A DNA stretch of 64,000 nt from an uncultured Candidatus Actinomarina sp. (GTDB lineage Bacteria; Actinomycetota; Acidimicrobiia; Actinomarinales; Actinomarinaceae), in the NCBI GenBank assembly GCA_902533795.1, contig CACAND010000001.1, positions 10,159-74,158 of the forward strand, read 5' to 3'. The first letter of the stretch is position 1. Each line of letters starts with the position of its first letter. The notes below the pieces were generated by a model. That model saw only the letters and a program-made list of their open reading frames with translations. It did no database searches and was not told the DNA's origin. Positions 13,967-31,193 of the stretch are shown here, in pieces. A program made the position numbers and the translations under genes.

Positions 13967-15324
13967 TAAGGATTCATTCTTCCTCTAGAAGTTGGATCTA
14001 AGTATGGAAGGCTACAACTAACAGAGTTAGGATTTTTTAATCGCACTTCAAAGTGCAAATGGGGTCCTGATGATCTTCCTGTATTACCAACTGTTCCAAT
14101 TACATCACCAGTTATTACTGTTTGTCCAACTGAAGTTCTTATTTCATTCATATGGAAGTAAAGTGTAGTCATACCTCCACCATGATCAATAAAGACAGTT
14201 CTTCCCGCTAGTCCATAATAACGAGCAAGAATGACAACTCCTCCTGCAGCAGCTTTTATAGGGGTGCCTGTTCTCCCAGGAATATCTATTGCTCCATGAA
14301 AACTAGTCACACCTCTGAATCTTCTCCATTTGTAACCACTTGATACGTAACTACCAGTTATTGGCCAAGTTAATTTATTTGGAGCTACTCCACCAAGAGA
14401 ACTTAATCTATTAATATCCTCTTGGATAGCATCTTCAAGCTTTTCTAGATTCGCATGTTCTGCATCTAACTTAGCAAGTTGATTATTTGCTTGAGTAAGA
14501 AGGTTCTGTGCTTTTTTACGTTCTGCCAATACAGCTGCTTTTTTATTTTCAACCTGTCGTTTTTCACTTTCTACCCTATTCTTGCTTTCTTCAACCTCCT
14601 CAGCATATTGCTCAGCTTCAATTGATATCTGATTCTTTTTTTCTTCTTCAACCTGTAAAGAGGCAATGATTTCCTCTCTTTGTTCTTCACGTTCTGATAA
14701 GAATTCAGTTTGTGTTCCCGACAAACTTTCAAAAGAGTTCAAAGATTCAATAATTTCATATGCTGTATTAACAATTGCTGATGCATAACCCAGTGCTGCT
14801 AAAAAATCTGATAAATCATTAAGGCTTATAAATAGAGCAGTTGCAGGGCTCATGACCCCATCTATATACATATCTACCGCTTTAATCTGTAATTCATCTT
14901 TTGCAGAATTCAAATTTTTTTGTGTCTCAAACAATTCATCTTTGACTTTTGCTATTTCATTTTTGGTTGTCCCTAAAGTTACTTGTTCCTTGACAATATT
15001 TTGTTGCACTGAAGCAAGATTATTTAATGATTCATCATATCCAGCTAGTGCTTTTTCTAATGCTGCTTCGGCAGACGCGAGTCTACGTTGAACCTCTGCT
15101 AGTTCATCATTAACTTTCTTAAGTGCTGTGTCATTTGCTAAAATATTCTTTTCTAAATCTGTCTTATCACCCTCATATTGTTTAATTTGATTAGCTATTG
15201 CTATGAGTTGCTTTTCTACTTCTTCTAATCTCTCTTCAGCTGTGATTGCATGAGAGGGATCTACCACGATAGTTTGTAATGTGATTACAAATAATATAAA
15301 AGTTATAAAGATCTTTTTAATCAT
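13948..15324 (-). CDS. M23-family peptidoglycan endopeptidase with N-terminal coiled coil (EnvC/RipC-like, FtsEX-associated)
   Basis: Signal peptide. About 300 aa of heptad-rich coiled coil. C-terminal LytM/M23 domain (HGAIDIPGRTGTPIKAAAGG...GNTGRSSGPHLHFE). Lies immediately downstream of ftsX. Confidence 0.8.
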   Translation of the reverse strand: MIKKIFITFILFVITLQTIVVDPSHAITAEERLEEVEKQLIAIANQIKQYEGDKTDLEKNILANDTALKKVNDELAEVQRRLASAEAALEKALAGYDESLNNLASVQQNIVKEQVTLGTTKNEIAKVKDELFETQKNLNSAKDELQIKAVDMYIDGVMSPATALFISLNDLSDFLAALGYASAIVNTAYEIIESLNSFESLSGTQTEFLSEREEQREEIIASLQVEEEKKNQISIEAEQYAEEVEESKNRVESEKRQVENKKAAVLAERKKAQNLLTQANNQLAKLDAEHANLEKLEDAIQEDINRLSSLGGVAPNKLTWPITGSYVSSGYKWRRFRGVTSFHGAIDIPGRTGTPIKAAAGGVVILARYYGLAGRTVFIDHGGGMTTLYFHMNEIRTSVGQTVITGDVIGTVGNTGRSSGPHLHFEVRLKNPNSVSCSLPYLDPTSRGRMNPYCFLDR

Positions 15325-16192
15325 TTAAAGCTTTTCTAATTCCAACAAAACTCGCAAAGAAACCAAAAAGAATTGTTGATAATAATAAAATTAAAGTCAG
15401 ATTTATTAAATAAGAATCAGAAATAGAGATATCAAAAATACTTTCTGATATAAAAGATGTTTTTGAATATTGTATAAAGCCCCAACCAAGACCTACCGCA
15501 ATACTTGTTCCAATCAAAGACTCAAATATTGCCTCAAATATAAAAGGTAATCTAATGTATGTTGAGGAAGCCCCAATAGTTCTCATAATTTTTATCTCTT
15601 TTTTCTTTGAATATGCAGTCAGTCTTAATGTGTTAATAATTAAAATAAACGCAGCAAATGCGATTAATCCAGCAAAAATAGTTGCTGATAAAACTAATGT
15701 ATTGGTTAAGCTTAAAAGTCTTTCAATGGCCTCACCAGAAGCTCTTATTTCTTTTACAGCTGGATTTCCATCCATTCTCTCAATAATTAATTTATAGTCA
15801 GCAGGATCATTTAAATTTATTCTTAATGAGGTAGGAAGAATTTCAAGGTCTACTTCTTGCAATAGTTCTGGTTGGTCTTTAAACAATGTCTTAAACTCTT
15901 CAGAAGCTTCCGTTTTAGAAAAATACTCTACCATTCTTACTTCAGGATAGGTTTCTAAGGTGTCTTGAAGTTGCTTGTGGGCTGTTGCGGTTACTCTGTC
16001 ATCTAGAAAAATTACAACATGCACTCCGTTTTGCCAACGTGAAGTATTATTTTCAACAATAGCTCTTGCAGAAAGAGTTGTGAAAACAAGAAAAGATGAA
16101 ACCAACACCGCAAGCATTGTTGCAATAACCAATAAAGGGTTTCTTCTCATATTTATGAAAGTATTTTTTAATACATAATTTAATTTTTTCAT
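15317..16192 (-). CDS. ftsX: cell division permease-like protein FtsX
   Basis: 291 aa. One TM segment, a large extracytoplasmic domain, then three TM segments. Adjacent to ftsE. Confidence 0.8.
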   Translation of the reverse strand: MKKLNYVLKNTFINMRRNPLLVIATMLAVLVSSFLVFTTLSARAIVENNTSRWQNGVHVVIFLDDRVTATAHKQLQDTLETYPEVRMVEYFSKTEASEEFKTLFKDQPELLQEVDLEILPTSLRINLNDPADYKLIIERMDGNPAVKEIRASGEAIERLLSLTNTLVLSATIFAGLIAFAAFILIINTLRLTAYSKKKEIKIMRTIGASSTYIRLPFIFEAIFESLIGTSIAVGLGWGFIQYSKTSFISESIFDISISDSYLINLTLILLLSTILFGFFASFVGIRKALND

Positions 16193-16198
16193 GAATAT

Positions 16199-16876
16199 CT
16201 AGATATATCTTCCCTGATCTACATCACTCATTAATTTTCCATCTTTTAATTGCAAAACTCTTTTTTTTCTTCTATTTACAATCGAAGAATCATGAGTAGC
16301 CATTAGTACGGTTGTTCCAGCCCTATTTATTTTTTCTAACAGAGTAAGTATTTGAATGCTTAAATCTGGGTCTAAATTACCTGTAGGTTCATCACATAAA
16401 AGTAACAAGGGATTTGAAGCTAAAGCTCTAGCTATGCAAGCTCTTGTTTGTTCTCCGCCTGAAAGCTGACTAGGAAATTTGTACATACTTTCTTGTAAAT
16501 CTACAAGATCAATAAGGGTGCTTGCTTTTTCATCAATTTCTTTTTCATCAAATCCGAGTACTTCAAGAGCAAAACAAACATTTTCAAAAGTTGTTCTGTC
16601 TTCTAATAATTGTGGTTCTTGCGTAACAATTCCTAATTTTCTTCTTAATAAAGGTATTTTCCATTTTGGTAAAGTTGTTACATCCATTTCAACAACTTCA
16701 ATTTCTCCTTTTGTGGCTAAGTAATCTTTGTATAAAAGCTTAAGTAAAGATGATTTTCCACTTCCAGAATGACCAATCAAATAAACAAATTCTCCTTCTG
16801 AAATTTCAGTTGAAACATTTGAAAGCGCAACACTTCCACCTTCAAAAACTAACGAAACATTGTCTAATTTAATCAT
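16199..16876 (-). CDS. ftsE: cell division ATP-binding protein FtsE
   Basis: 225 aa. Walker A GHSGSGKSS, signature LSGGEQTR and Walker B LLLCDEPTGNLD. Confidence 0.9.
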   Translation of the reverse strand: MIKLDNVSLVFEGGSVALSNVSTEISEGEFVYLIGHSGSGKSSLLKLLYKDYLATKGEIEVVEMDVTTLPKWKIPLLRRKLGIVTQEPQLLEDRTTFENVCFALEVLGFDEKEIDEKASTLIDLVDLQESMYKFPSQLSGGEQTRACIARALASNPLLLLCDEPTGNLDPDLSIQILTLLEKINRAGTTVLMATHDSSIVNRRKKRVLQLKDGKLMSDVDQGRYI

Positions 16877-17973
16877 TTAATCCCTGTCTACGCCATTTTA
16901 GATACTCATTAATAAATATGTTAATATCTCCATCTAAAACTGATTGAATGTTTCCAACTTCAATGTTTGTTCTTGAATCTTTCACTTGTTGGTAAGGTTG
17001 CATTACATAAGACCTAATTTGTCTGCCCCATCCTGCTTCAACTTGTTCACCTCTAATTGAATCAAGTTTTTTCATTTTTTCTTCTCTCTCTAGAATTATA
17101 AGTTTTGATTTTAAAAGACTCAATGCTCTTACTTTATTTTGTAATTGTGATCTCTCTGCCTGACAAGCAACAACAATTCCAGATGGAATATGAGTTACTC
17201 TTACAGCAGAGTCAGTTGTATTGACATGTTGACCTCCAGCGCCGGATGATCTGTAAACATCGATTCTTATGTCATCATCATTAAGGTCTAGATCTTCGGA
17301 GTCTTCAATTAAAGGGATCACATCTACACCAGCAAAACTAGTATGTCTTCTTTTGTTGCTGTCAAAAGGACTAATTCTAACTAAACGATGTACTCCCCTT
17401 TCACTTTCTAAATTTGCATAGGCTCTAAAATTTTCTACTCTTATCGAGGCTGATTTAATTCCAGCCTCTTCACCTGATGAAATTTCTTCGATTTCATAAC
17501 TCATTTTTTTATCATCTAAATATCTTGTATACATCCTAAGTAGCATTTCAGCCCAATCATGGGCATCAACACCGCCAGCACCTGCATTAACAGTTAATAC
17601 AGCTGAATGATCATCAAACTCACTTGAATACAAAGATTCCTCTTCTAAATCAATAATTTTTTGTTCAACTTCATCAAATTGAGGTTTTATTTCTTCTAAT
17701 TCAGATAGATTGTCTTTGCTCAATACAGTCAATTCTTCAAGGTCTTTAATTTCGCTATCTAAAATATTTAATAGATTTATTACTTTTTCTAGGTTTGAGG
17801 CACTTTTAACAATATTTTGAGCATTAGGATTTTCCGACCAGAAATTTTCTTTAGAGATTATTTTATTAAGATTTTGAAGATCTTCTTTTTTATTGTCAAA
17901 GTCAAAGATACTCCTTGGCAGAAGAAAGTCTTTTTTGAAATAATGCTAATTTATTTGTGAGCTCTTTGAACAT
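16869..17973 (-). CDS. prfB: peptide chain release factor 2, expressed via programmed +1 ribosomal frameshift: join(17973..17905, 17903..16869) on the minus strand
   Basis: The track ORF (287 aa) holds the RF2 GGQ (SGAGGQHVNTTDSAVR) and SPF (ISPFD) motifs but lacks the N-terminus. Upstream in the -1 frame lies ATG (17973) MFKELTNKLALFQKRLSSAKEYL, ending at CTT TGA C preceded by AAGGAG. The reconstructed protein is about 367 aa. Confidence 0.85.
17901..17916 (-). promoter_or_regulatory. prfB autoregulatory +1 frameshift site (SD-like AAGGAG, spacer TAT, CTT TGA C)
   Basis: Minus-strand sequence AAGGAGTATCTTTGAC. It matches the canonical RF2 recoding site exactly: an internal Shine-Dalgarno 3 nt upstream of the CUU-UGA-C slippery/stop context. 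Confidence 0.85.
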
Positions 17974-20555
17974 TTATCTACCATTCCACATTTTTTATAC
18001 TTTAATCCTGAACCACAGTGGCAAGGATCATTTCTTCCAATTTTACCTTTACCGTCAAAGTTTACTTTTTTAGATTCGTTTTTTTCAACCTTTTTATTGT
18101 CTTGTGAAACTTTTTCAAAGTTTAATAAAAGTCTAACAACAGACAATTTTACATTATCTATTAATTCTTCAAATAGATCATATCCTTCTTTTTGATATTC
18201 AACAAGAGGGTCTCTTTGTCCCATTGCTCTGAGACCAATTCCTGACCTTAAATAATCCATCTCCGATAAATGATTTTTCCAAGATTGATCTATAAAAGAA
18301 AGGGCACCTATTCGGGCTAAATTCATAAAATTTTCTTCATCAGATTCAAAATTTTTCAAATATATATTCTCAAGTGACGCTATGATGTCGAAATCATCAT
18401 TTATATCTTGATCCTTTAACAATTGTTTTTTTACATTTTCAGATAAAAGAAGGCTTAATTGATCATCTACATAATTTCTAAACTCATCAAGACTTTCATA
18501 TTGTCTTTTATAATTCTCAATACTATTTTGTACATCTTCAATAACATCGTCTCTCCATTCGAAAATCAAATCTTCTATATTTTCTGATCTTAAAAGCTGT
18601 CTTCTCCATCTGTATATGACGTCTCTTTGCTGATTAAGCACCTGATCAAATTTAAGTACATTTTTTCTAATTTCAAAGTTTAAAGATTCAACTTGTGCCT
18701 GAGCTCTTTCAATACTCTTTGTAACCATGTTTTGCTCTATTTTTTCTTCGTCTGGTAAATTTAATTTATCCATTATTGACTGAATCCGTTCACCCTGAAA
18801 GCGTCTCATTAATTCATCTTCAAGGCTGATATAGAATCTAGACTCACCTGGATCACCTTGTCTTCCAGATCTTCCTCTTAATTGATTGTCAATTCTTCTA
18901 GATTCATGACGTTCAGTCCCGATTACGTACAATCCTCCTAAATCTTTAACTTTTTCTTTTTCATCATTTATCGAAGAATCATACTCCATTATTAATTGCT
19001 CAATGTATTCTTCATCATCTTCTTTATTTTCTTTTTCTGCTTGAGCATTAGCCATAAATTCGCTGTTTCCACCAAGCTTTATATCCACACCTCTACCTGC
19101 CATGTTTGTAGCAACAGTTACAGATTTTAGACGACCAGCTTGTGCAATAATTGAAGCTTCCTCTAAATGATTTTTTGCATTTAACACCGAATGCTTAATA
19201 CTATTTTTTGTAAGTTCTTTAGAAATTTCTTCGGATGAATCTACGGAAACCGTACCTAATAAAACAGGCTGTCCCAATTCATGACGCTCCTTGATATCTT
19301 CAACAACAGCATTTAATTTTGCTTGCCTCGTCTTATAGACAGTATCTTGATTGTCATTTCTTGCAATAGGTAGATTTGTTGGAATCTCAACTACTTCAAG
19401 ATTATAAATTTGAATTAGTTCATCTTCTTCTGTTTTTGCTGTTCCAGTCATCCCTGAAAGATTTTCATACATCCTAAAATAATTTTGATAAGTAATCGAT
19501 GCTAGCGTTTGATTTTCATCCTGAATCCTCAGATTTTCTTTCGCTTCAATGGCTTGATGAAGTCCATCAGAATACCTCCTGCCTTCTAACACACGTCCTG
19601 TAAATTCGTCTACTATTTTTACCTGACCATCAGCGTTAATATAATCTACATCTTTTTTATATATTTCTTTTGCTCTTAAAGAAGCCGTTAAATAATGAAT
19701 AAAGTTAGTTGCTGTATTTTCATACAAGTTATCAACACCTAATTTTTGCTCTATAAACTCAATACCATCTTCTGTTGGATGGATTTGTTTTTTTGACTCA
19801 TCAACTTCATAATGAATATCTTTTTTCATTTGCTTAACAAGCTTTGAAAATTGTAGATACCATTTTGTAGATTCTTCTACTCTGCCAGAAATAATTAGTG
19901 GAGTTCTTGCTTCATCAACTAATATAGAATCAACTTCATCAATAACAGCATAGAAAAGGTCACCTTGAGCTAATTGATCCGAAGTTTGGGCCATGTTGTC
20001 TCTAAGATAATCAAATCCAAATTCATTGTTTGTTCCATAGACGATGTTTTTTTTATATTCTAAAACTTTTTCTTGGTATTCTTGACCTGAGAAAATAAGA
20101 CCGACATCTAAACCTAAAAAATTATATATTGGACTCATCCATTCTGCGTCTCTTTTTGATAAGTAATCATTTACTGTTACGACATGTACACCCTTCTGAT
20201 AAAGTGCCATATATGAAATAGGAAGCGTTGAAACTAAGGTTTTGCCTTCCCCAGTTTTCATTTCGGCAATTTTATTTCTTAGTAATACCATCCCACCAAA
20301 AAGTTGGACATCATAATGACGTTGTCCTATTGTTCTTTTTGATGCTTCTCTTACAAGGGAGAATGCTTCAACCTCATGTTCGAATTTATTTTCTGAATTA
20401 AGTTTTGTTTTTAATTCTTGAAAGGTATCTTGTATTTCCTGATCTGTAAGTTTTTCAGTTTCAGGTTCCCTTAAATTAATTAACTCAACTTTTTTATTTA
20501 ATTCTTGAGCAAGTTTTCCACTTCCAACTGATAAGACTTTTTTAAAAATACTCAA
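17946..20555 (-). CDS. secA: preprotein translocase ATPase SecA
   Basis: 869 aa. DEAD-like motor motifs (GEGKTL, DEVDSILVDEARTPLIISG). C-terminal zinc-binding tail CHCGSGLKYKKCG. Its 3' end overlaps the prfB start by about 28 nt. Confidence 0.95.
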   Translation of the reverse strand: MSIFKKVLSVGSGKLAQELNKKVELINLREPETEKLTDQEIQDTFQELKTKLNSENKFEHEVEAFSLVREASKRTIGQRHYDVQLFGGMVLLRNKIAEMKTGEGKTLVSTLPISYMALYQKGVHVVTVNDYLSKRDAEWMSPIYNFLGLDVGLIFSGQEYQEKVLEYKKNIVYGTNNEFGFDYLRDNMAQTSDQLAQGDLFYAVIDEVDSILVDEARTPLIISGRVEESTKWYLQFSKLVKQMKKDIHYEVDESKKQIHPTEDGIEFIEQKLGVDNLYENTATNFIHYLTASLRAKEIYKKDVDYINADGQVKIVDEFTGRVLEGRRYSDGLHQAIEAKENLRIQDENQTLASITYQNYFRMYENLSGMTGTAKTEEDELIQIYNLEVVEIPTNLPIARNDNQDTVYKTRQAKLNAVVEDIKERHELGQPVLLGTVSVDSSEEISKELTKNSIKHSVLNAKNHLEEASIIAQAGRLKSVTVATNMAGRGVDIKLGGNSEFMANAQAEKENKEDDEEYIEQLIMEYDSSINDEKEKVKDLGGLYVIGTERHESRRIDNQLRGRSGRQGDPGESRFYISLEDELMRRFQGERIQSIMDKLNLPDEEKIEQNMVTKSIERAQAQVESLNFEIRKNVLKFDQVLNQQRDVIYRWRRQLLRSENIEDLIFEWRDDVIEDVQNSIENYKRQYESLDEFRNYVDDQLSLLLSENVKKQLLKDQDINDDFDIIASLENIYLKNFESDEENFMNLARIGALSFIDQSWKNHLSEMDYLRSGIGLRAMGQRDPLVEYQKEGYDLFEELIDNVKLSVVRLLLNFEKVSQDNKKVEKNESKKVNFDGKGKIGRNDPCHCGSGLKYKKCGMVDKCSKSSQIN

Positions 20556-20557
20556 AT

Positions 20558-21802
20558 TTAGCTAGTGCCATGCTCCCAGGAGTCGAGATAATCAATTTGC
20601 TCTTTGGTGAGTATTTCAAGCTCTCCACCCATGAGTTCTAGTTTTGTTGCAGCAATTTTTAAATCTACTTCATTTGGAAGAGTATAAACTTTTGGTTCTA
20701 GTTCTTTGTAATTGTCTTTAATCCATTCAGCAGCCAGTGCTTGATTTGCAAATGACATATCCATTACAGATGCTGGATGACCTGTTGCAGCTGCTAAGTT
20801 GACAAGCCTGCCTTCTGCTAAGACCAATATTTCTTTCCCATTATATTTGTAACTTTCAACATGTTCTCTAACTCTATCAACTTGTGAACTATTTTCTTTG
20901 AGGGCGTTTAAATTAATTTCGACATCAAAATGTCCTGCATTAGCTAAGGCAACTCCATCTTTCATTACATCAAAGTGTTGTTTATCAAGAGCATGCATAT
21001 TGCCCGTTACAGATACGATTACATCGGCAATCTTTGCTGCGTTTATACTTGTTTTAACTTCGTATCCATGCATAAGAGCTTCTAAGGCACGAACTGAATT
21101 TGGTTCAACAACCGTAACTTTTGCACCCATTCCATACGCTCTTTCTGCAACTCCTTTTCCACAATCACCAAAACCAATAACAACTACATCCAAGCCTGCA
21201 ATCAATAAATCGGTAGCTCTTACTACACCATCCATCGCACTTTGACCAGTTCCAAATCTGTTATCAAATAAATGCTTAGTGTCAGAATCATTTACTGCAA
21301 CGACTGGAAATCTAAGTTTGTTATTTTTTTCCATTGATTTGAGTCTTATTACTCCTGTTGTTGTCTCTTCCATTGAGCCCATTACTGGTATATCAGATCT
21401 CTCAGTGTGTAATAATGAAACTAAATCTGCTCCATCGTCCATTGTTATATCTGGTTTCGTATCTAAAACAGAATTAAGGTGTTTGAAAAAATCATCATTA
21501 GATACTCCATGTACAGCATGAACTTCTACATCATTTTCAGAGAGATATGCTGCAACTGAGTCTTTTGTAGATAATGGATTTGAAGCACACAATGATACAT
21601 TGGCTCCGGCAGCTTTCAAAGTAAGCATTAAATTAGCAGTTTCCTTTGTTACGTGCATACAAGCACCTATGTTTAAACCTTCTAATGGTTTGTTCTTCAT
21701 AAAGTCTGATTTTATTTCATCAAGAACTTTCATCTGTCTTGCTGCCCAGTCAACTTCTTGTTGGCCAACATCTGCAAGTTTAATATCTTTAATTGTTGAC
21801 AT
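20558..21802 (-). CDS. ahcY: adenosylhomocysteinase
   Basis: 414 aa. NAD-binding IGFGDCGKG and the conserved HxTxET region (CMHVTKETANL) of S-adenosyl-L-homocysteine hydrolase. Confidence 0.9.
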   Translation of the reverse strand: MSTIKDIKLADVGQQEVDWAARQMKVLDEIKSDFMKNKPLEGLNIGACMHVTKETANLMLTLKAAGANVSLCASNPLSTKDSVAAYLSENDVEVHAVHGVSNDDFFKHLNSVLDTKPDITMDDGADLVSLLHTERSDIPVMGSMEETTTGVIRLKSMEKNNKLRFPVVAVNDSDTKHLFDNRFGTGQSAMDGVVRATDLLIAGLDVVVIGFGDCGKGVAERAYGMGAKVTVVEPNSVRALEALMHGYEVKTSINAAKIADVIVSVTGNMHALDKQHFDVMKDGVALANAGHFDVEINLNALKENSSQVDRVREHVESYKYNGKEILVLAEGRLVNLAAATGHPASVMDMSFANQALAAEWIKDNYKELEPKVYTLPNEVDLKIAATKLELMGGELEILTKEQIDYLDSWEHGTS

Positions 21803-22797
21803 TATCCTCCTAGCAAGTCTTTTAGTTTTTCAATAGTTTTAATGTCTTCTGGATCAATAGATAGCTTTTTTGCTAAATTTAAACTAACTAAATCACCTAG
21901 TAATACTAACTCCAATAAGGTTTTTAGTGTATTTTCTTGATTATCTAAATTAACTTCAAGTACTACTACTTTTTCGCCAATTAAATTTTTCGTAAATTCA
22001 AATCTTTTTTGAATTTGAATGTGTTCATTTTTATCTCTCAGCAAAATTACTATAAAATTATTTTTACTTCCGTCTTCATCTGCATCCCAAGAAAGTATTT
22101 CATTATGATGAACTTCTGGCAAATTACCAACAAAAGCCTTAGATTTTGAATTTTCATTAATTTGAGTTTTCCAGCGAGATGATACAACTTTCGACATATC
22201 CGTACCAGCGTAAAGAATAACGGTTTTATTATTTATAGATTCACTGATTTCTAAAGAAAGTTTATTTATTTCAGATTCATTATTCAACTTAGATATAGTC
22301 TCTAAATAATTACTAACTTCCTTTAATTGAGAAACAAAATTTGATCCATCTAATGAATCTAATATTTTTGAAACAGCTAATGTGAGATATCCAAAAGCCG
22401 CTCTTGGTTGCAATCCACTTGGAATTTTGATAAAAACTTTATCTTGTTTTTTTGCGATATCTATCAACTTTCCTCCACTTGAAATAACCATCCAATCCAA
22501 GTTGTTTTCAATAGCATCAGATATTCCTGACAATGTTTCTTCCGTATTTCCTGAATAAGATATAAATAAGCAAAAAGGTCGCAAATTGATAATTTGTTTT
22601 GGTATTGAATAGTCTTTGCGCACAATAATATTCTTATCAGATATTTCATTTGATAAAACTTTCATAACATCCCCTGCGACACCAGAACCACCCATTCCCA
22701 TGATTAAAAGATTATCGTTTGAGAAGTTTTCTAAATTTCTTGAAAACTCAAGCTTGGATATTATTTGATTTTTTAGATCGAAAGCAATACTTAACAT
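21802..22797 (-). CDS. SIS-domain bifunctional phosphoglucose/phosphomannose isomerase family protein
   Basis: 331 aa with tandem SIS-like halves. N-terminal LLIMGMGGSGVAGDV. Located between ahcY and pmm, as in actinobacterial manA/pmm loci. Confidence 0.55.
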   Translation of the reverse strand: MLSIAFDLKNQIISKLEFSRNLENFSNDNLLIMGMGGSGVAGDVMKVLSNEISDKNIIVRKDYSIPKQIINLRPFCLFISYSGNTEETLSGISDAIENNLDWMVISSGGKLIDIAKKQDKVFIKIPSGLQPRAAFGYLTLAVSKILDSLDGSNFVSQLKEVSNYLETISKLNNESEINKLSLEISESINNKTVILYAGTDMSKVVSSRWKTQINENSKSKAFVGNLPEVHHNEILSWDADEDGSKNNFIVILLRDKNEHIQIQKRFEFTKNLIGEKVVVLEVNLDNQENTLKTLLELVLLGDLVSLNLAKKLSIDPEDIKTIEKLKDLLGG

Positions 22798-24138
22798 TTA
22801 TAAACTTATTATATTTGAAATTTTAGAAATGAGGTTATCTAAAGTTTTTTGATCAACTGCTTCAGCATTCAATCTAAGCATTGGTTCAGTATTCGATCCT
22901 CTGACATTGAACCAAAAATTATCAGAAAAATATGATATGCCATCTAATTTATCAAAATCACCTTCGAATGAATTTTCAATTTTATCAAGGCTAATTCCAA
23001 CATCCTCAACGGTATAATTTATCTCACCGGAGGATGGCATAAATTCATACTTTTCTATAAGTTGTCCACTTTTAATATTTTTTTCGCATAAGATCTTCAA
23101 AAATATCAATAATGTCAATATCCCTGAGTCAGCATAAAAATTTTCTCTTAAGTAAAAGTGAGCACTATGTTCACCTCCAAAATCTGCATCATTATCTCTC
23201 ATAATTTTTTTTATGTAAGAGTGACCAACCTTAGATCTTATTGTCTGAACACCTTTATTTTTTAAATATTCGATGATAGATGGCTGGACATTAACGTTAT
23301 GTACTACCTTTATATTTGATTGTTTTTCAAGCAGCCAATCAGATATTAAACATGTCATTAAACTTCCGCTAATTAAATTCCCTTTATCGTCAATAAAAAC
23401 TGACCTGTCTGCGTCACCATCAAATGCAACTCCAAAATCAAGATTTTTTGATAAAACTTTAGCTTTAAGATCAGAAAGATTATTTTCATCTGATGGATCA
23501 GCTGGATGATTAGGGAAATTTCCATCTACATCCATAAATAAACTCTCATAATTTAAATTATAAGTTTTTGAGAGATCTTCAATAATTGAACCAAGTACAC
23601 CATTCCCACCATCTATACAAAATTTTACTGTTTCACTAATCTCTGATGTGTCAACTATCTTTTTAAAATGATCTAAATATAAATCAATCATATTCTTTTT
23701 TACAGGTAAATCTAAAATCTTAAAGTCTTCATTAAAATTTTCTGCAAGTTTTTTTATTTCTTTAAGTCCTGTTTCTTGACCTATTGCAATTGCGCCATTA
23801 TTACAAAACTTAAATCCCGTATACTCTTTTGGATTATGAGATGCCGTAATAATCAAACCAGGCAAATTTCTTATACCTGATAATGTGTAAACGACATCGG
23901 TAGGGACCGTTCCAACATACAAAACTTTTTTATTCACATTTTGAATACCTGAACTCACTGCAGTGAACATTTCTTCATTTGATATTCGACCATCATGTCC
24001 GACAATTATTTCATCTGAATCTACATATGAAGCAAAAGCGGCACCTATTTTAAAAGCTATTTCAGGAGTAATTGATTCATTAAATACCCCCCTTACATCG
24101 TAAGCCTTAAAAATTAAATCTAGTTTATTTTCATCCAC
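22798..24138 (-). CDS. manB: phosphomannomutase/phosphoglucomutase
   Basis: 446 aa. Active-site serine loop TASHNP, metal-binding DGDADR and the sugar-binding loop of the alpha-D-phosphohexomutase family. Confidence 0.8.
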   Translation of the reverse strand: MDENKLDLIFKAYDVRGVFNESITPEIAFKIGAAFASYVDSDEIIVGHDGRISNEEMFTAVSSGIQNVNKKVLYVGTVPTDVVYTLSGIRNLPGLIITASHNPKEYTGFKFCNNGAIAIGQETGLKEIKKLAENFNEDFKILDLPVKKNMIDLYLDHFKKIVDTSEISETVKFCIDGGNGVLGSIIEDLSKTYNLNYESLFMDVDGNFPNHPADPSDENNLSDLKAKVLSKNLDFGVAFDGDADRSVFIDDKGNLISGSLMTCLISDWLLEKQSNIKVVHNVNVQPSIIEYLKNKGVQTIRSKVGHSYIKKIMRDNDADFGGEHSAHFYLRENFYADSGILTLLIFLKILCEKNIKSGQLIEKYEFMPSSGEINYTVEDVGISLDKIENSFEGDFDKLDGISYFSDNFWFNVRGSNTEPMLRLNAEAVDQKTLDNLISKISNIISL

Positions 24139-24153
24139 TCCATATGTATTGTA

Positions 24154-24894
24154 ATGTTTATGAAAACGAACAACATGATAAATAATTTTTCAGTTGTAAT
24201 ACCAGTTTTTAATGAAGAGGAAATCTTTTTAGATTCTGCAAAAAAAATTTACAATATCTGTAAACAAGTAGATAAACCATTTGAAATTATTTTTTCAGAA
24301 AATGGATCGTCCGATAATACAGTGAATTTAATACAAAATTTCATAGATGATAAAGATAGCTGTTTCATGATTAGAAATGAGATAGCAAATTATGGACTTG
24401 CACTAAAAAATGGATTTAAAAACGCCAAAAATGACCTTATTATTTCATTTGATATAGATTATTTTTCACAAAAATTTCTTGAAGAATCACTTAAATTAAG
24501 TGATGAATTCGTAGCTATAGTAGCTTCTAAAAGAATGGGTGAATCAGAAGATCAAAGGACAATTGTTCGAAAGCTTGCAACATCAACATTTGTATTGATA
24601 TTGAAGATTTTATTCCAAACCTCACTTAGCGATACTCATGGAATGAAAGCTATTAGAAGAGATAACATGCTCAAAGAAATTAACAATGTCATATCAACAC
24701 AAGATATTTTTGATACTGAACTTTTAATTAGGATAGAAAAGTCTGGATTCAAGATTCAGGAAGTTCCTGCGAAAGTAAATGAGATGAGACCAAGTGTTTC
24801 TGTTATTTTCACAAGAATTCCAAGAACTCTTAAAAGTTTATTTAAATTAAGATATCAATTATTTAAAGAGTCTTTGAAAACAAATAATTTATAG
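24154..24894 (+). CDS. GT2-family polyprenol-phosphate glycosyl(mannosyl)transferase (DPM1/GtrB/Ppm1-like)
   Basis: 246 aa. N-terminus SVVIPVFNEEE and a DxD-like FDIDY motif. Small soluble GT2 of the Dpm1/ArnC type. Confidence 0.7.
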   Translation: MFMKTNNMINNFSVVIPVFNEEEIFLDSAKKIYNICKQVDKPFEIIFSENGSSDNTVNLIQNFIDDKDSCFMIRNEIANYGLALKNGFKNAKNDLIISFDIDYFSQKFLEESLKLSDEFVAIVASKRMGESEDQRTIVRKLATSTFVLILKILFQTSLSDTHGMKAIRRDNMLKEINNVISTQDIFDTELLIRIEKSGFKIQEVPAKVNEMRPSVSVIFTRIPRTLKSLFKLRYQLFKESLKTNNL

Positions 24895-25325
24895 ATTACA
24901 TATTTTATTGGAAGAATAAATCCATGTATCAATATTGTTGCAATCAAAAATTGAATTTCATTATTTTGTATTGAAGGCCTTATAAAATCAATTAAGAACC
25001 ATATAAATAAGGGGACAATTAAGTTAATCAAATTTGTGATTACAAATTTTATAAATTCTTTAAAGCCTCCATCATAAATAGATAGTTTAAAAATAATTTT
25101 TCTGGATAAAAAGTATGAAATTATGACGCCAATTGAAAATGAAAATATGTTTGTTAAGTAAGTTCTCAAAGGTACTTGAATTCCAAAAAAAACATAAAAT
25201 TGAAATATATAACTATTTCCTAACCCAATAATTAAGTTAATTGCACCTACTACATAGGTTCTAAATAATTGATAATAGGTTGAGTTTCCCGTTACTAATT
25301 TGAAAGTTTTAAGTTTTTTTATCAT
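24855..25325 (-). CDS. GtrA-family small membrane protein (polyprenol-linked sugar flippase-like)
   Basis: 156 aa with four predicted TM helices. Its size and topology are those of the GtrA family. It overlaps both neighbours. Confidence 0.55.
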   Translation of the reverse strand: MIKKLKTFKLVTGNSTYYQLFRTYVVGAINLIIGLGNSYIFQFYVFFGIQVPLRTYLTNIFSFSIGVIISYFLSRKIIFKLSIYDGGFKEFIKFVITNLINLIVPLFIWFLIDFIRPSIQNNEIQFLIATILIHGFILPIKYVIYKLFVFKDSLNN

Positions 25326-27507
25326 TTTGTTTCAGTTTAAAAAAAATTGTTAATGACAAGAGTAATGAAAATAATGAAAAATAGAAGCTGTTTTTTTCAA
25401 CAGGTGTTTTTTCAAAGTAAATCTCTACAGATTCATCATTTGGAATAACTGACATAAATGAAGGTGATGTTCTAAAAGGTCCTTTACCATTAGTAATATT
25501 CCAATTTGGAAAGTAAGAAACTTTGATTAAATGTAATTCTCCAGGACTATTTGTAAAAAAAGAAATTTTGTCATTTGTAATATTTAAGTCGGTAATTTGT
25601 AAATTATTCTTTTTTGATGACACTATGTTCATTCCATTACCGACCTCAATTACCCTTTTTTTATCAAGCTCATCAAAGCTTTCATAAGCCTTGTCAAAAA
25701 AATTATTAATATTTGTATCTCGAAAAATCGAGCTTAAAATTCCATCTTGCGTTCTGGCCTTTGAAAAGATTTCTATATCTTGATAAATTAATTCAACTTT
25801 AGAAGAGTTAACTTTAAAAACTGTAAACGGTTCTGATGAGAAAAGTAATATAAGCTTTTCAGAATCCATTGCTTTACTCTCAATTTCTTCTGTATATGAA
25901 ATAAAATAATCTACCCCAAGGTCATTAAGGTACTCGATACCTTGGTCAAATTGATTATTGATGTAAGACAATCCACCGACGGGATTTGAGGGTCTTTTTG
26001 CTAAACCAGACACTGAGATAAAGTGAAATGGAGTTGTAATACTTGAGTCAAAATATAAACCTTCCATACTTGTGTGTTTAGTAAAATATGGAATAGTCAT
26101 CAAAGTCATTGGGGTTCCGTACTTATTCATGTCAGAATTTGGTTCCCACATAATTCTTCCAGGTTTTAAATCGTTTAATTTTAAATAAAGATTTTCAATT
26201 TGAGTCCAGTCATTTTTGCCTTCGTAACCAGTGAAATTCCAATTTAGCCAATGTGGAAGGAAAGATACTGTAGAAAGAATAATTGATACAAGTAGTAAAT
26301 TAATTTGGATTTCAACATTTCTTAAATTTAAAACTGCAAAAATACTTATCAAAAAAATAATTGGAATATATTGGTTCAAATAGGATTGATTACTTGACCA
26401 TTTATCATAAAAAATATACAAGCAATAAATCGTTCCAATTAAAAATAAAATTGTGAAAACATTTATTCCTTGTTGATAAAGATTTAAATCCTTAATGAAA
26501 ATTTCAATTGCTTTAAACAATATAACAATAACTCCAAGATTAAAAAACGGGACTAATCGCCCATTCCAAAGGGCACCTTCTGGTACAAAAAAATAAAGAA
26601 GAATGGATGAGACAACAAGATAAAGTTCAAATAAATTTAATGATTTATTTTTGATTAACTCTTTAAATTTTGCAATTATTAATCCAAGCAATATAAAAAT
26701 AATAGGCAAAATATCTTCTTTAATTAAATCTTCTACTCTTGTAAAAGGGGTGTAGCTCATATTTGTTGTAAATTCTAAATTTATAAATAGAGAGATAAAC
26801 CATCTTGTGACAAGTGCCAAAAATATTGTGATTGAAAGTATTTTTTGATTTATATTCTCTTTTTTAAATAACCAATAAAATCCATAAATCGGAATATAAA
26901 TTATAAAAGGAATTAGGTGTGATAAAAGACAAAGAGAAAGGAAGATTGAACTAATCGAAAATCTAAATTTATTATTTGATTTAATCAAATAAAAGATAGC
27001 TAAATTCCCAAATGCTAATGAATAAGCGAAAGAAAATTGTCCAGCTAAAGTTGATGCTAAATTTCCACCATAAATTGTAAATGATTCTGTAAAAACATAA
27101 AATAAGCCGGCGGTAGCCCCTATAGAAGAAAATTTAATTGAGTCTTTTCTTAATAATTTTTCTAATGAATAAACAACCAAGATTGTAGAAATCACAACCA
27201 TTAATTTAAAGGCAACCCCAAAAGGAAAAATCAGATCTAGAAAGTAAGTAATAATTGCTGGTAACGGAAAATAAAAATAATACAGAGGATATCCAGCAAA
27301 CCAATCATTTGACCATCCACTAATCTCAAAGTTTGGCATAAAGTCTTTAATAAAGGTATTAATTGCAACAATATGTGCTCCCATATCACCACCGGTAGGC
27401 GTGTTGTTTTGGAAGACTAAATCAATTCTTAAAAACAAAATTAGAACAATCAAATAAAATAATTTTTGCGAAATATCTGAATTTATATTGTTACTAATTG
27501 ATTTCAT
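25309..27507 (-). CDS. large polytopic membrane protein, candidate GT-C glycosyltransferase (polyprenol-phosphate-sugar dependent)
   Basis: 732 aa. About 11-13 TM helices in the N-terminal 480 aa, with an early loop motif GGDMGAHI / WSNDWFAGYPLYYFYFPL. Soluble C-terminal domain of about 250 aa. Co-located with the GT2 and GtrA genes. Confidence 0.45.
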   Translation of the reverse strand: MKSISNNINSDISQKLFYLIVLILFLRIDLVFQNNTPTGGDMGAHIVAINTFIKDFMPNFEISGWSNDWFAGYPLYYFYFPLPAIITYFLDLIFPFGVAFKLMVVISTILVVYSLEKLLRKDSIKFSSIGATAGLFYVFTESFTIYGGNLASTLAGQFSFAYSLAFGNLAIFYLIKSNNKFRFSISSIFLSLCLLSHLIPFIIYIPIYGFYWLFKKENINQKILSITIFLALVTRWFISLFINLEFTTNMSYTPFTRVEDLIKEDILPIIFILLGLIIAKFKELIKNKSLNLFELYLVVSSILLYFFVPEGALWNGRLVPFFNLGVIVILFKAIEIFIKDLNLYQQGINVFTILFLIGTIYCLYIFYDKWSSNQSYLNQYIPIIFLISIFAVLNLRNVEIQINLLLVSIILSTVSFLPHWLNWNFTGYEGKNDWTQIENLYLKLNDLKPGRIMWEPNSDMNKYGTPMTLMTIPYFTKHTSMEGLYFDSSITTPFHFISVSGLAKRPSNPVGGLSYINNQFDQGIEYLNDLGVDYFISYTEEIESKAMDSEKLILLFSSEPFTVFKVNSSKVELIYQDIEIFSKARTQDGILSSIFRDTNINNFFDKAYESFDELDKKRVIEVGNGMNIVSSKKNNLQITDLNITNDKISFFTNSPGELHLIKVSYFPNWNITNGKGPFRTSPSFMSVIPNDESVEIYFEKTPVEKNSFYFSLFSLLLSLTIFFKLKQNDKKT

Positions 27508-27748
27508 TTAAAATTTTTCCTAGATATTTTGTATTTCTTTTTCCATTTTCTGACCATTCAGCATACCAATATGGACCATGAGGGCAACTGTTACAAGACT
27601 CTCGCCCACATTTTATGGACTTTTGTCTATAAGATATTTTTTGTTCATTAATGTCGCTGCCAAGTTTATTATCAATTAAAATCCTTAATCTTTTCAGATC
27701 TGATTCACCTAATTCAGAGATTGCTTCTAGAATTTCTCTATCTACCAT
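27494..27748 (-). CDS. small zinc-ribbon protein, hypothetical
   Basis: 84 aa. C-terminal CGRESCNSCPHGPYWYAEW (Cx4CxxC...H) looks like a metal-binding knuckle. No family assigned. Confidence 0.35.
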   Translation of the reverse strand: MVDREILEAISELGESDLKRLRILIDNKLGSDINEQKISYRQKSIKCGRESCNSCPHGPYWYAEWSENGKRNTKYLGKILNEIN

Positions 27749-27782: not shown

Positions 27783-28685
27783 TTGAGTATGAAAAAAATT
27801 GTCTATTTATCTGGTGGAATTGGTGGAGCGAAGCTTGCTAAAGGTTTTTACAATTTAAATGATATTGACTTAACAATTATCGTAAATACAGGTGACGATG
27901 AAACCATACATGGGGTAAGGCTATCACCTGACATAGATTCCGTAATTTATGCGTTAGCTGGAATTGAGGGTCAGTTTGGATGGGGACAAAAAAATGACAC
28001 TTTTTCAGTTAGCGAAGAATATAAAAAATATTTACCACAAGAATTTAATCTCGGTGATAAAGATCTCGCTTTAAATCTTTTTAGAAATCAACTATTTTCA
28101 GAGGGAAAGTCTTTAACTCAGATAACAAACATAATTACAAATAAATTTGATTTAAATTGTAAAATTTTGCCAATGTCTGATAATTTAGTAAGTACGAAAA
28201 TTAAAACCTCCAATGGTAAATTATTAGACTTCCAAGAATATTTTGTTGAATTAAAATCTGAACCAAAAATAAGTGATGTGATTTATTTAGGATCTGAAAA
28301 AGCAGTCATTACAAAGGAAGTATCAAATGCAATAGATGAAGCAAATAAAATAGTCGTTGGTCCCTCAAATCCCATATTGTCTATCGGACCAATTCTTGCA
28401 ATTAAAAATTTGAAAGATAAATTAATGAGTAGTAATTCAATATATGTTGTTAATCCATTTATTAAAAATAAAGCAATTAAAGGGCCTTCAAAGAAAAATT
28501 TTGAAGATCTCGGTTTTAAGAGTGATATAACTGGAATTAAAGACTTTTATAACAATATTGGTAATTACTACATAGTTCAATCAGGTGATACAGACAAAGC
28601 AGAAAATACGATTGAGAAAAATATATTATTTAAGTCCACAGAAGATTCAACTAATTTAGCAAGGTATATTGTTGATCATGAATAA
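27783..28685 (+). CDS. cofD: 2-phospho-L-lactate transferase (F420 biosynthesis, LPPG:Fo transferase)
   Basis: 300 aa. N-terminus IVYLSGGIGGAKLAKG and IIVNTGDDETIHGVRLSPDIDSVIYALAG match the CofD/UPF0052 signature. Confidence 0.75.
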   Translation: MSMKKIVYLSGGIGGAKLAKGFYNLNDIDLTIIVNTGDDETIHGVRLSPDIDSVIYALAGIEGQFGWGQKNDTFSVSEEYKKYLPQEFNLGDKDLALNLFRNQLFSEGKSLTQITNIITNKFDLNCKILPMSDNLVSTKIKTSNGKLLDFQEYFVELKSEPKISDVIYLGSEKAVITKEVSNAIDEANKIVVGPSNPILSIGPILAIKNLKDKLMSSNSIYVVNPFIKNKAIKGPSKKNFEDLGFKSDITGIKDFYNNIGNYYIVQSGDTDKAENTIEKNILFKSTEDSTNLARYIVDHE

Positions 28686-29376
28686 TATAACAATCATCCC
28701 AATAAAAAATCTACCTGAATTTGAACCAAAACATGATTTGGCTTACGAGATAACTAAAACTTTTGGTAGTAATAATTTTATTCTTGAAGATAAGGATGTA
28801 ATCGTCATAACTCAAAAAATAGTTTCAAAAGTAGAGGATAGATTGATTAAAAACGATCATGAAACTATTGAAAAATTAATTCAGAAAGAATCCTTAGAAA
28901 TTTTAAGAAAAAGAGGTGATACGGTAATTGCAAGAACAAAACATGGTTTTATTTGTGCAAATGCTGGCATTGATAAGTCAAATATTGAAAAAGGATCAGT
29001 TTTGCTGTTGCCTGAAGATCCAGATAAAACGTGTAGAGATATAAGAAAAAAAATTGAACATATAACTAATAAGAAAATTAGCATAATCATATCTGATACT
29101 TTTGGTAGAGCATGGAGAAAAGGTCAAACCAATGTTGCTATAGGGTCGTCAGGTATTGAGCCTTTAGAAAGCTATATAGGCAAAAAAGATGCTTTCGATA
29201 ATGAATTGTTTGCGACTGAAATAGCAATTATTGATGAACTAGCTGGAGCTGCAGAATTAGTTATGAAAAAATCTGACAATATACCGGTGGCCATTATTAG
29301 GGGAGTTAACTATAAATCTTCAAATTTAGGAGTAAAAGAATTAATTAGAAAAGAAGACGAAGATTTTTTTCTGTAA
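28669..29376 (+). CDS. cofE: coenzyme F420-0:L-glutamate ligase
   Basis: 235 aa. ICANAGIDKSN and GRAWRKGQTNVAIG resemble CofE / the FbiB N-domain. Overlaps cofD by 17 nt. Confidence 0.7.
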   Translation: MLIMNNITIIPIKNLPEFEPKHDLAYEITKTFGSNNFILEDKDVIVITQKIVSKVEDRLIKNDHETIEKLIQKESLEILRKRGDTVIARTKHGFICANAGIDKSNIEKGSVLLLPEDPDKTCRDIRKKIEHITNKKISIIISDTFGRAWRKGQTNVAIGSSGIEPLESYIGKKDAFDNELFATEIAIIDELAGAAELVMKKSDNIPVAIIRGVNYKSSNLGVKELIRKEDEDFFL

Positions 29377-29397: not shown

Positions 29398-30333
29398 TTA
29401 TTCATTCTTAAACCAGTCTACTAATTCTTCAATCCCTCTATTTAGATTATATTCTGGAGCCCAATCCAAAATTTTCTTAGCCTTTTCATTATTTAAAACA
29501 CTTCTAAGTAGCTCACCGTCTCTTTGTGGTTTGTAGTCTGGTTCTCCCTCCCACGAAGTTATTGATCCAATTAGTGATACCAATTCATTTACGGTTGTTT
29601 CTTTACTCGTGCCTATGTTCAAAAATAAATCTTCATCAATTTCTGACGATTTTATTAATGCACTTACAACATCGGTCACAAAAATATAATCACGTGTTTG
29701 TTTTCCATCTCCAAAAACAATTGGTGTTTCATTTTTAAGCATCTTTCCAGTAAATATTGACATTACACCTGCTTCGCCATGTGGATCTTGTCTTGGACCA
29801 TAAACATTTGCTAAATTTAAAATTGAATATGACATTATTTGATCTTGGAGCATCAATTTTATAAATTCATTGAGCTTTTTTTTTGCAACTCCATATGGCG
29901 ATGCTGGCTCTCCTGCATAATCTTTTTCAGATGTTGGTATAACATTAGGTTCACCAAATATTGTTCCTCCGGAAGAGCTGAACACAAATTTTTTACAATC
30001 TGTACTTATTAGTTTCTGTAATAACTTAATTGGTTGTAAAAGATTATGTTCAAAATCTAAGAGTGGATTTTCAACAGAAACAACTACTGAAGATTGAGCA
30101 GCTAAATGAAAACAGATACCTGGGTTGAATGTTTCAATTACCTTTAATGATTTATCAGAACCAAGGTCATCATAAATTGCCTCTACATTGTCTAATTTAT
30201 CAATATTTGATTTTTTTCCAGTTAGTAAGTTATCAACAACTAATACTCTTACATTATTTTTTACAAGTTCTTGAACAAGATGAGAACCTATAAATCCTGC
30301 GCCACCAGTTACTAAAGCTTTTTCAAATTTCAA
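29398..30333 (-). CDS. NAD-dependent nucleotide-sugar epimerase/dehydratase (GalE-like)
   Basis: 311 aa. Rossmann motif VTGGAGFIGSHL and YxxxK (YGVAKK) of extended SDR enzymes. Confidence 0.8.
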   Translation of the reverse strand: MKFEKALVTGGAGFIGSHLVQELVKNNVRVLVVDNLLTGKKSNIDKLDNVEAIYDDLGSDKSLKVIETFNPGICFHLAAQSSVVVSVENPLLDFEHNLLQPIKLLQKLISTDCKKFVFSSSGGTIFGEPNVIPTSEKDYAGEPASPYGVAKKKLNEFIKLMLQDQIMSYSILNLANVYGPRQDPHGEAGVMSIFTGKMLKNETPIVFGDGKQTRDYIFVTDVVSALIKSSEIDEDLFLNIGTSKETTVNELVSLIGSITSWEGEPDYKPQRDGELLRSVLNNEKAKKILDWAPEYNLNRGIEELVDWFKNE

Positions 30334-31193
30334 GGTCTAACAATCTCTTCATTTAATATGGTCCCATCTTTAATAATTGTTCCATCACAAATTATTGAAT
30401 TTTTAATTTGTACATTATTCCCAATAGAACATGACCCTAAAATTACACTATTTTCGATTGTTACGTTTTTTCCAATAATCACTGTTTCGGAGATCCAGTT
30501 ACTCTGATTTTCTGTATGAGCATATATATATGACTCTCTTGTTCCTATGTCTAACATATTACCTTCAACAATAAAGCAATCTATTAACTTCTTATCTGCT
30601 AACTCAGGAAATACATTTTTCTCAAATGAACAAGGAATTTCAAACTTATTTTCTATTTCCTTAATATCTTTTTTATGGAGACAATATACTCCAAGGCTTA
30701 TATTGTTTCCATATTTCATATCTTCTGGTTTTTCAATAAAATTAATAATTTTTGTTCCATCTAATTCTAGGACTCCGTACCTTGAAGGATCATCAACTGG
30801 TATAGAACAGATAGTTGAATTTTTTGAATTGTTTGCAACTTCTAAAAATGAGTTAAAATTCATTTCGATCAATAAGTCCCCGTTCATACACAAAAATTTA
30901 TCACTAAAATTGTTGATGTTTTGAACTACAAAACCAGCTGTGTCTAATTTTTCGTGTTCAAAATGTAAGTTCACATTAAAGTGGGAATTTTTTTTATACT
31001 CTAGCCAAAACTTTTCATGCTTAATTGAACATATTAAATTAATGTTTTCTAAATTTGATTTATCTAAATTTTCAAGAATTAAATCAATTAGTAATTTTCC
31101 CTTGATAGTCAGTAAAGCTTTTGGAATCCCCTCAGATAAAGGTCTTAACCTTGTGGCTTCTCCACCAACTAATAGATATATATCTTTAATCAT
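30330..31193 (-). CDS. sugar-1-phosphate nucleotidyltransferase with C-terminal left-handed beta-helix
   Basis: 287 aa. N-terminus LLVGGEATRLRPLSEGIPKAL (the GxGTRL-type NTP-transferase motif). C-terminal hexapeptide-repeat region. Confidence 0.7.
   Translation of the reverse strand: MIKDIYLLVGGEATRLRPLSEGIPKALLTIKGKLLIDLILENLDKSNLENINLICSIKHEKFWLEYKKNSHFNVNLHFEHEKLDTAGFVVQNINNFSDKFLCMNGDLLIEMNFNSFLEVANNSKNSTICSIPVDDPSRYGVLELDGTKIINFIEKPEDMKYGNNISLGVYCLHKKDIKEIENKFEIPCSFEKNVFPELADKKLIDCFIVEGNMLDIGTRESYIYAHTENQSNWISETVIIGKNVTIENSVILGSCSIGNNVQIKNSIICDGTIIKDGTILNEEIVRP

Follow-up and report, generated by a model that had tools for sequence, protein, structure and literature searches.

A predicted polyprenyl-phosphate-dependent glycosylation module with a divergent GT-C protein in Candidatus Actinomarina and other Acidimicrobiia

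Main finding and proposed reaction course

A 64-kb stretch of Candidatus Actinomarina DNA (GC content ~31%; hereafter the window) contained three neighbouring genes that probably form a conserved three-part glycosylation module, in which a polyprenyl phosphate is loaded with a sugar and the sugar is then transferred to an extracytoplasmic acceptor. The genes encode a soluble glycosyltransferase of family 2 (GT2; 246 aa, 24154–24894, + strand), a small membrane protein of the GtrA family (156 aa, 24855–25325, − strand) and a polytopic membrane protein with the fold of C-type glycosyltransferases (GT-C; 732 aa, 25309–27507, − strand). A first-pass annotation had proposed that the three act as one system, and all open reading frames (ORFs) it named were present at exactly the coordinates it gave. 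The system type is well known and no new principle is proposed; the GT-C protein, on the other hand, belongs to an uncharacterised family.

We infer the course of the reaction from the enzyme classes, the membrane topology, a candidate catalytic aspartate and the genetic coupling of the three genes. A bifunctional phosphoglucose/phosphomannose isomerase (PGI/PMI), a phosphomannomutase (PMM) and a nearby nucleotidyltransferase would yield a nucleotide-activated hexose, with GDP-mannose as the most likely product. The soluble GT2, which an amphipathic C-terminus, GtrA or both would keep at the membrane, would then move one sugar onto polyprenyl phosphate at the cytoplasmic face. The lipid-linked sugar would cross to the outer face, with the assistance of GtrA where present. 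There, the GT-C protein would pass it to an extracytoplasmic acceptor, by means of Asp41, which lies in the first outer loop, and of an outer domain similar to those of oligosaccharyltransferases (OSTs) and AftD.

Conserved synteny and natural gene fusions

Loci were scanned in one genome per species, with an alignment of ten GT-C sequences as the query and 587 relatives covered. Synteny counts refer to the best 80 of the 587 loci, all of which were from Acidimicrobiia, and in which the GT-C identity was 50–88% within Actinomarina and 29–34% elsewhere. The gene order in nearly all loci was CofE–CofD, a distance of 0 or ~4.5 kb, an 84-aa protein, GT-C, GtrA where present, GT2 (convergent), PMM, PMI, AhcY and SecA. 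A convergent GT2 gene was located at most 1.5 kb from the GT-C gene in 72 of the 80 loci, down to a GT-C identity of 29%.

The same genes were also found fused, as counted over the 150 listed representatives. Six proteins joined GT-C and GT2, with the GT2 at the C-terminus in five and at the N-terminus in one. All six matched the GT2 profile of the locus (1e-40 to 7e-80), and one of them (P0129) shared 34% identity with the window GT2 over 217 residues. A triple fusion (P0235) consisted of GT-C (residues 1–748), GtrA (803–900, PF04138 with 29.1 bits) and GT2 (945–1173), and was encoded at the same syntenic locus, with DUF3499/Rce1-like genes on one side and PMM on the other. Every fusion order fits a cytoplasmic C-terminus after the last of the 14 predicted transmembrane (TM) helices of the GT-C protein, TM14. 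Because of the conserved synteny and the natural fusions, the three genes are considered functionally coupled, which bears out the first-pass proposal of a single system.

The 732-aa protein as a divergent GT-C enzyme

The nearest relatives of the 732-aa protein were hypothetical proteins from metagenome-assembled and single-amplified genomes of Candidatus Actinomarina and Acidimicrobiaceae (91–93% identity), which places the window in the Actinomarinales, a streamlined marine order of the class Acidimicrobiia. A search over 1.84 billion representatives retrieved 2495 relatives at E ≤ 1e-3 and 555 at E ≤ 1e-30. PF10131 (PTPS_related) was matched by 21 of 35 aligned relatives (best E 6.6e-40), and the matching relatives shared 25–30% identity with the window protein. 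The window protein itself did not match PF10131 at E ≤ 0.01 (gathering threshold 26.4 bits), and its Actinomarina orthologues were likewise below the threshold. By these sequence relationships, the protein stands beside PF10131 as a divergent sister or sub-family and is not a scored member of it. PF10131 appears in the GT-C clan CL0111 as a family of unknown function (PMC7801869).

An AlphaFold2 model of the protein (pLDDT 90.9, pTM 0.93) matched ArnT (3.3e-8), AftD (4e-7) and STT3/AglB/PglB (1e-5 to 1e-4) in Foldseek, and all significant matches were GT-C enzymes. No meaningful relative was found among PDB sequences with a family profile of 36 sequences. The topology comprised 13 TM helices in residues 1–415, a soluble domain at ~420–700, TM14 at ~702–731 and a Lys-rich tail. 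The 13 preceding helices place the soluble domain outside, and TM14 and the Lys-rich tail return the end of the chain to the inside. The first-pass description of a polytopic protein with a C-terminal soluble domain thus needs one amendment: the domain was recovered, but it is followed by a further TM helix. In the model, the outer domain was composed of an alpha/beta part and a beta-sandwich; modelled alone (pLDDT 76), it was most similar to STT3B, AglB-L, DPY19, AftA and PglB. The predicted architecture is a GT-C module, a core unit of the OST/AftD type, a beta-sandwich and TM14.

Asp41, in the motif TGGDxGAH right after TM1 (first outer loop), was invariant in 36 sequences with identities down to 23%. 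The catalytic acid of GT-C enzymes sits in the first outer loop, and Asp41 is a candidate for this residue. Further invariant residues of the family were H197 and R317/P320, and a conserved W-x2-W-N-[YF]-x-G-Y-E motif (WLNWNFTGYEG in the window) was located directly past TM13. Fold, topology and candidate Asp support the prediction of a GT-C-fold membrane glycosyltransferase, and the pairing and fusion with GT2 imply that its donor would be a polyprenyl-phosphate sugar.

Several other assignments of the 732-aa protein were rejected. The fold and the PF10131 relatives, which lie in the GT-C clan, argue against a transporter, a possibility that the first-pass annotation had named. It had also noted the lack of a canonical motif of protein O-mannosyltransferases (PMT) or ArnT; in agreement, an HMM search of GT-C families gave no Pfam match. 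Specifically, neither PF02366 nor PF13231, the models of PMT (GT39) and ArnT-type (GT83, PMT_2) enzymes, was matched, so that the likeness to these is at the fold level only. A PMT with MIR domains was dismissed since the model had no beta-trefoil inserted in a loop and its outer domain was C-terminal. Membership in YfhO (PF09586), DUF2142, GT87 or DUF2079 was not supported by any match; the search of 35 relatives for these families was also negative, apart from one weak match to DUF6057. Finally, PF02516 was not matched and the WWDYG motif was absent, and only the core-unit fold is shared with STT3/AglB/PglB. One relative (P0206, L083 551–4126) had a PF10131 GT-C module fused to DUF2079, a second module of the GT-C clan, and was adjoined by a convergent gene for a 226-aa GT2.

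Upstream of the GT-C gene and overlapping it by 14 nt, the window encoded an 84-aa soluble Cys/His-rich protein (27494–27748, − strand) with the motif CGRESCNSCPHGPYWY (CGxxxCxxCxHGPYWY; three Cys and one His). Homologues were detected with phmmer in 72 of the 80 loci, always on the same strand and upstream of GT-C, and the protein appears from this to be a conserved companion of GT-C. Pfam gave only a sub-threshold match to DUF6788, and no match was found in PDB or PHROG. The position of the gene is roughly that of whiB2 beside fbiA in Mycobacterium tuberculosis; by Pfam, the 84-aa protein was not a WhiB protein.

The soluble GT2

The GT2 (PF00535, 64 bits) had no hydrophobic segment and hence no C-terminal anchoring TM helices. 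As a single sequence, it matched ArnC (5e-11) and Synechocystis GtrB in PDB. A family profile of 16 sequences matched ArnC (4.5e-25), GtrB (1.9e-23) and dolichol-phosphate mannose synthase (DPMS) of Pyrococcus furiosus (1.5e-22); residues 22–231 of the latter (5mlz) aligned to profile positions 4–213 of 235. Near-full-length profile alignments were limited to these three enzymes. Chondroitin and heparosan synthases and other GT2s aligned with the N-terminal half only (positions 5 to ~110), which speaks against a polysaccharide synthase. Both aspartates of the DxD motif (D100-I-D102) were invariant in the family alignment. Since the alignment to ArnC, GtrB and DPMS extends past the GT-A core, reaching the interface helices of these solved enzymes, and the DxD motif is present, the protein is assigned to the polyprenyl-phosphate glycosyltransferase class of GT2, and a polyprenyl-phosphate sugar synthase of the DPMS/GtrB/ArnC type is predicted. 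The class is well supported and agrees with the Dpm1/GtrB type given in the first-pass annotation; the activity would follow from it.

Human DPM1 likewise has no TM helices and depends on partner proteins. The same has been described for domain D2 of Ppm1 and for PpgS (PMC3485146). Two GT2 subtypes were found convergent to orthologous GT-C genes. The window subtype has the signature 'FDIDY...SDTHGMK', and a second, more canonical subtype (L017, L021, L037 and L062) has the signature 'LDADLDLPPEQ...SETQTGLK' and an identity of 21–25% to the window type. This sequence divergence suggests that some lineages have exchanged their GT2 or use a different sugar.

The role of GtrA

The match of the GtrA protein to PF04138 (39.4 bits, cutoff 26.1) spanned residues 25–150, and four hydrophobic peaks corresponded to four TM helices, as had been described at first pass. 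The Pfam name of PF04138 is 'GtrA/DPMS transmembrane domain', so GtrA and the TM domain of DPMS form a single family. Among the 73 loci with both GT-C and GT2, a gap of the size of GtrA was present in 43, and phmmer confirmed GtrA in 32 of these 43. In the remaining 30 (~40%), GtrA was absent, because GT-C and GT2 were too close for a GtrA gene to fit (gap −157 to 113 nt); GtrA is therefore not an obligatory part of the module. This census is based on gap size and single-sequence phmmer. An iterated GtrA profile over six-frame ORFs was discarded since it had drifted (176 hits in 79 loci).

GtrA may flip the lipid-linked sugar, serve the soluble GT2 as its membrane partner, or do both; the roles of flippase and anchor can coexist, and that of flippase is assumed here. 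We regard it as quite possible, if short of an even chance, that GtrA and the GT2 instead make up a split polyprenyl-phosphate sugar synthase, with GtrA as its membrane subunit, and that another factor does the flipping. For PpgS, the comparable partner would be Rv3632, and for GacI it would be GacJ; the TM domain of archaeal DPMS would be a further case. The absence of a TM helix in the GT2, the union of GtrA and the DPMS TM domain in PF04138 and the direct contact of GtrA and GT2 in the triple fusion P0235 all fit such a subunit. So do the description of PpgS/Rv3632 as analogous to Ppm1 D2/D1 (PMC3485146) and that of soluble GT-A enzymes dependent on a small membrane protein (PMC8035078). 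However, in the ~40% of loci without GtrA, the GT2 persists at a similar size, which means that GtrA is dispensable for it, and GtrA-type proteins of Gram-positive bacteria are thought to be flippases (PMC8035078).

Which sugar is transferred

Genes for sugar activation lie around the module. PMM (22798–24138, − strand) contained all four PGM_PMM domains (NF007088 414 bits, below the cutoff). PGI/PMI (21802–22797, − strand) exceeded the cutoff of TIGR02128 (249 vs. 214 bits) and kept its position across orthologous loci. On the other side of the module, a GalE-like NDP-sugar epimerase/dehydratase (29398–30333, − strand; PF01370; TIGR01179 156 bits, below the cutoff) and a sugar-1-phosphate nucleotidylyltransferase (30330–31193, − strand; PF00483 and hexapeptide repeats) were encoded by genes that overlap by 4 nt. 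The best match of the latter was to the Rv3264c-type mannose-1-phosphate guanylyltransferase (NF052502, 115 bits vs. a cutoff of 440). From these families, PMM/phosphoglucomutase (PGM) would supply the hexose-1-phosphate, the nucleotide sugar probably comes from the nucleotidyltransferase, and the GalE-like enzyme may alter that sugar.

Mannose is the leading candidate, at about even odds, because PGI/PMI, PMM and a nucleotidyltransferase resembling the Rv3264c type surround the module and PMM is fused to GT-C in some lineages. A different sugar, e.g., glucose, galactose or an amino sugar, has almost as good a claim, and several observations weigh against mannose. The GT2 was about equally distant from ArnC, GtrB and DPMS and thus no nearer to a GDP-mannose enzyme (DPMS) than to enzymes using UDP-sugars (ArnC and GtrB), so that no sugar specificity can be assigned from it. 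PMM/PGM and PGI/PMI are bifunctional families, and the nucleotidyltransferase was far below the guanylyltransferase cutoff and translationally coupled to the GalE-like epimerase. Given the two GT2 subtypes at the locus, the sugar may also differ between lineages. Furthermore, the neighbourhood of sahH, manA, pmmA, DUF3499, DUF5719, fbiA/B and manB, as in M. tuberculosis (Rv3248c–Rv3264c), is ancestral in actinobacteria; DUF3499 and DUF5719 neighbours were also seen in the orthologous loci. With such an ancestral synteny, the adjacency of pmm may be historical and is weak evidence for mannose. The first-pass annotation had taken the neighbouring phosphomannomutase and phosphomannose-isomerase-like genes as a pointer to mannose; both genes were confirmed, whereas their value as a pointer is low. 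What still speaks against a sugar other than mannose is that the full route from fructose-6-phosphate to a nucleotide hexose around the module is the GDP-mannose route of other actinobacteria, together with the best match of the nucleotidyltransferase and the occurrence of GT-C::PMM fusions.

Acceptor and donor of the GT-C protein

We slightly favour a cell-wall glycopolymer or lipoglycan as the acceptor, and consider a protein acceptor, or one of yet another kind, unlikely. With a protein as the acceptor, the same machinery would modify secreted or membrane proteins, with the GT-C protein acting like PMT, DPY19 or OST on Ser/Thr, Trp or Asn, which in this specific form we regard as rather unlikely. 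It is very improbable that GT-C and GT2 are neighbours by descent only and that the GT-C protein uses an unrelated donor, e.g., a polyprenyl-diphosphate oligosaccharide, as an OST, ligase or polymerase would. The OST-like outer domain would suit such a donor, and three loci and the PMM-fused lineage retained GT-C without an adjacent GT2. This is difficult to reconcile with the in-frame joining of GT-C and GT2 in six independent cases and the triple fusion, with the adjacency of the two genes in 72 of 80 loci, and with the convergent 226-aa GT2 beside even the distant PF10131–DUF2079 protein. A polyprenyl-phosphate sugar from the GT2 is thus the preferred donor, and the following points count against the three-part module as a whole. 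In addition to the loci without GtrA, two of the 150 listed representatives (P0162 and P0163), in which PMM is fused to the C-terminus of GT-C, joined syntenic neighbours in lineages that had lost GT2. The 732-aa protein had no Pfam, NCBIfam or PDB-sequence match, and no experimentally characterised member of PF10131 was found in the searchable literature.

Candidatus Actinomarina ranks with the smallest and most abundant of the free-living bacteria in the sea. The module was located outside the hypervariable envelope-polysaccharide island known from the Actinomarinales, in a conserved core beside SecA, FtsEX and F420 genes, and was retained even in streamlined genomes of 1.1 Mb. This location and retention argue for an important, invariant envelope modification. 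According to the Actinomarinales genome paper, variable envelope genes lie in a flexible island of their own, and the composition of the Acidimicrobiia cell wall is unknown (PMC7771536). Taken jointly, the module may contain the first recognisable member of an unstudied GT-C family, a branch of PF10131 near-universal in Acidimicrobiia, in which an OST/AftD-like outer domain goes together with a polyprenyl-phosphate donor carrying a single sugar, and which installs a core, invariant envelope glycan, perhaps as a new bacterial protein glycosylation, with the 84-aa protein as a dedicated fourth component; in all its parts together, this reading is distinctly doubtful. Through the module, GT-C proteins of the PF10131 type gain a concrete functional context: their GT2 partner is defined, a sugar and a catalytic Asp can be named as candidates, and fusion proteins occur naturally.

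Comparison with known systems

The GtrA/GtrB/GtrX proteins of Shigella phages glucosylate the O-antigen, and ArnC/ArnE-F/ArnT form a comparable system. The nearest solved relatives of the window GT2 were GtrB and ArnC (5ekp, 9bhc), ArnT (5ezm) was the top Foldseek match of the GT-C protein, and the phage GtrA belongs to the same Pfam family as the window GtrA. Unlike the window GT2, GtrB and ArnC each carry a pair of TM helices at the C-terminus; the large OST-like domain and the terminal TM helix of the window GT-C are missing from ArnT and from GT-Cs of the Gtr type. AftD, AftA and STT3/AglB/PglB (6w98, 8if8, 6s7t, 3waj, 5ogl) shared 6–14% identity with the GT-C protein, without a match at the profile level. 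OSTs use a diphosphate-linked oligosaccharide, whereas the GT2 partner implies a single, monophosphate-linked sugar as the donor.

The three-part scheme, including the variant of a soluble GT-A enzyme with a separate small membrane protein, has been described (PMC8035078). CsbB/GtcA/YfhO of Bacillus subtilis and Staphylococcus aureus and GtlA/GtcA/GtlB of Listeria, which glycosylate lipoteichoic acid, follow the same logic (PMC8035078): a GT-A/GT2 enzyme makes a C55-P-sugar, a GtrA-family protein takes part, and transfer outside the membrane is the task of a polytopic GT-C. CsbB and GtlA differ from the window GT2 in carrying their own TM helices. The window GT-C did not match YfhO (PF09586) and differs from it in the OST/AftD-like outer domain and the C-terminal TM14.

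Two mycobacterial or actinobacterial systems were also compared. In M. tuberculosis, PpgS (Rv3631), Rv3632 and Rv3779 place galactosamine on arabinogalactan, with the same combination of a soluble-type GT2, a small membrane partner and a wall-decorating GT-C (PMC3485146). The NCBIfam model of PpgS matched the window GT2 weakly (21 bits vs. a cutoff of 370), and the GT-C family, the locus and probably the sugar are different. In the actinobacterial systems of Ppm1 with Pmt/MptA-type enzymes, a TM-less GT2 (Ppm1 D2) makes polyprenyl-P-mannose for extracytoplasmic GT-Cs (PMC5882110, PMC3485146), and GDP-mannose genes are nearby, as their candidates are in the window. The window GT-C, by contrast, matched no PMT, PMT_2 or GT87 model, and the likeness of the two GT2s is one of class. 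The likeness to actinobacterial lipomannan or protein O-mannosylation pathways drawn in the first-pass annotation therefore holds as an analogy and fails as family membership, since PMT and PMT_2 were not matched.

Gene layout and neighbouring features

The GT2 gene lies on the strand opposite to GtrA, and the 3' ends of the two genes converge with an overlap of 40 nt. The GT-C and GtrA genes overlap by 17 nt, and by their arrangement the 84-aa, GT-C and GtrA genes look like a single operon. The divergent start codons of PMM and GT2 are separated by 15 nt (24139–24153); with this spacing, the GT2 promoter must sit within the PMM coding sequence. A scan for consensus promoters and terminators yielded 40 sites, compared to 39.6 expected. 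PGI/PMI is followed by AhcY (20558–21802, − strand) and SecA (17946–20555, − strand), and the divergent CofD and CofE genes (27783–29376) are located between the 84-aa gene and the GalE-like gene.

In three loci (L037 2862–6778, L081 1541–5631 and L085 1–4563), genes for a protein of 900–1100 aa and a DUF5719 protein were located between CofD and the GT-C module. In these other Acidimicrobiia, the larger protein began with a GT2 domain and was hydrophobic over its long remaining part. The Actinomarina window lacked both genes, and CofD abutted the 84-aa gene.

A cell-division and translation block (13948–17732, − strand) directly adjoined SecA on its downstream side; it encoded an M23 peptidase whose N-terminus is a coiled coil, FtsX, FtsE and a release factor carrying RF-1/PCRF domains. 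The order SecA, release factor, FtsE and FtsX recurred in locus L085. The tmRNA gene at 7825–8163 (− strand) encoded the tag peptide AKPKLAVAA. A 217-aa ORF (38551–39204, − strand) without a Pfam or NCBIfam match adjoined a cobalamin adenosyltransferase gene. A 986-aa protein (39606–42566, + strand) contained four PG_binding_1 repeats and a SpoIID domain, and a class A penicillin-binding protein (33695–36655) was identical to it in length.

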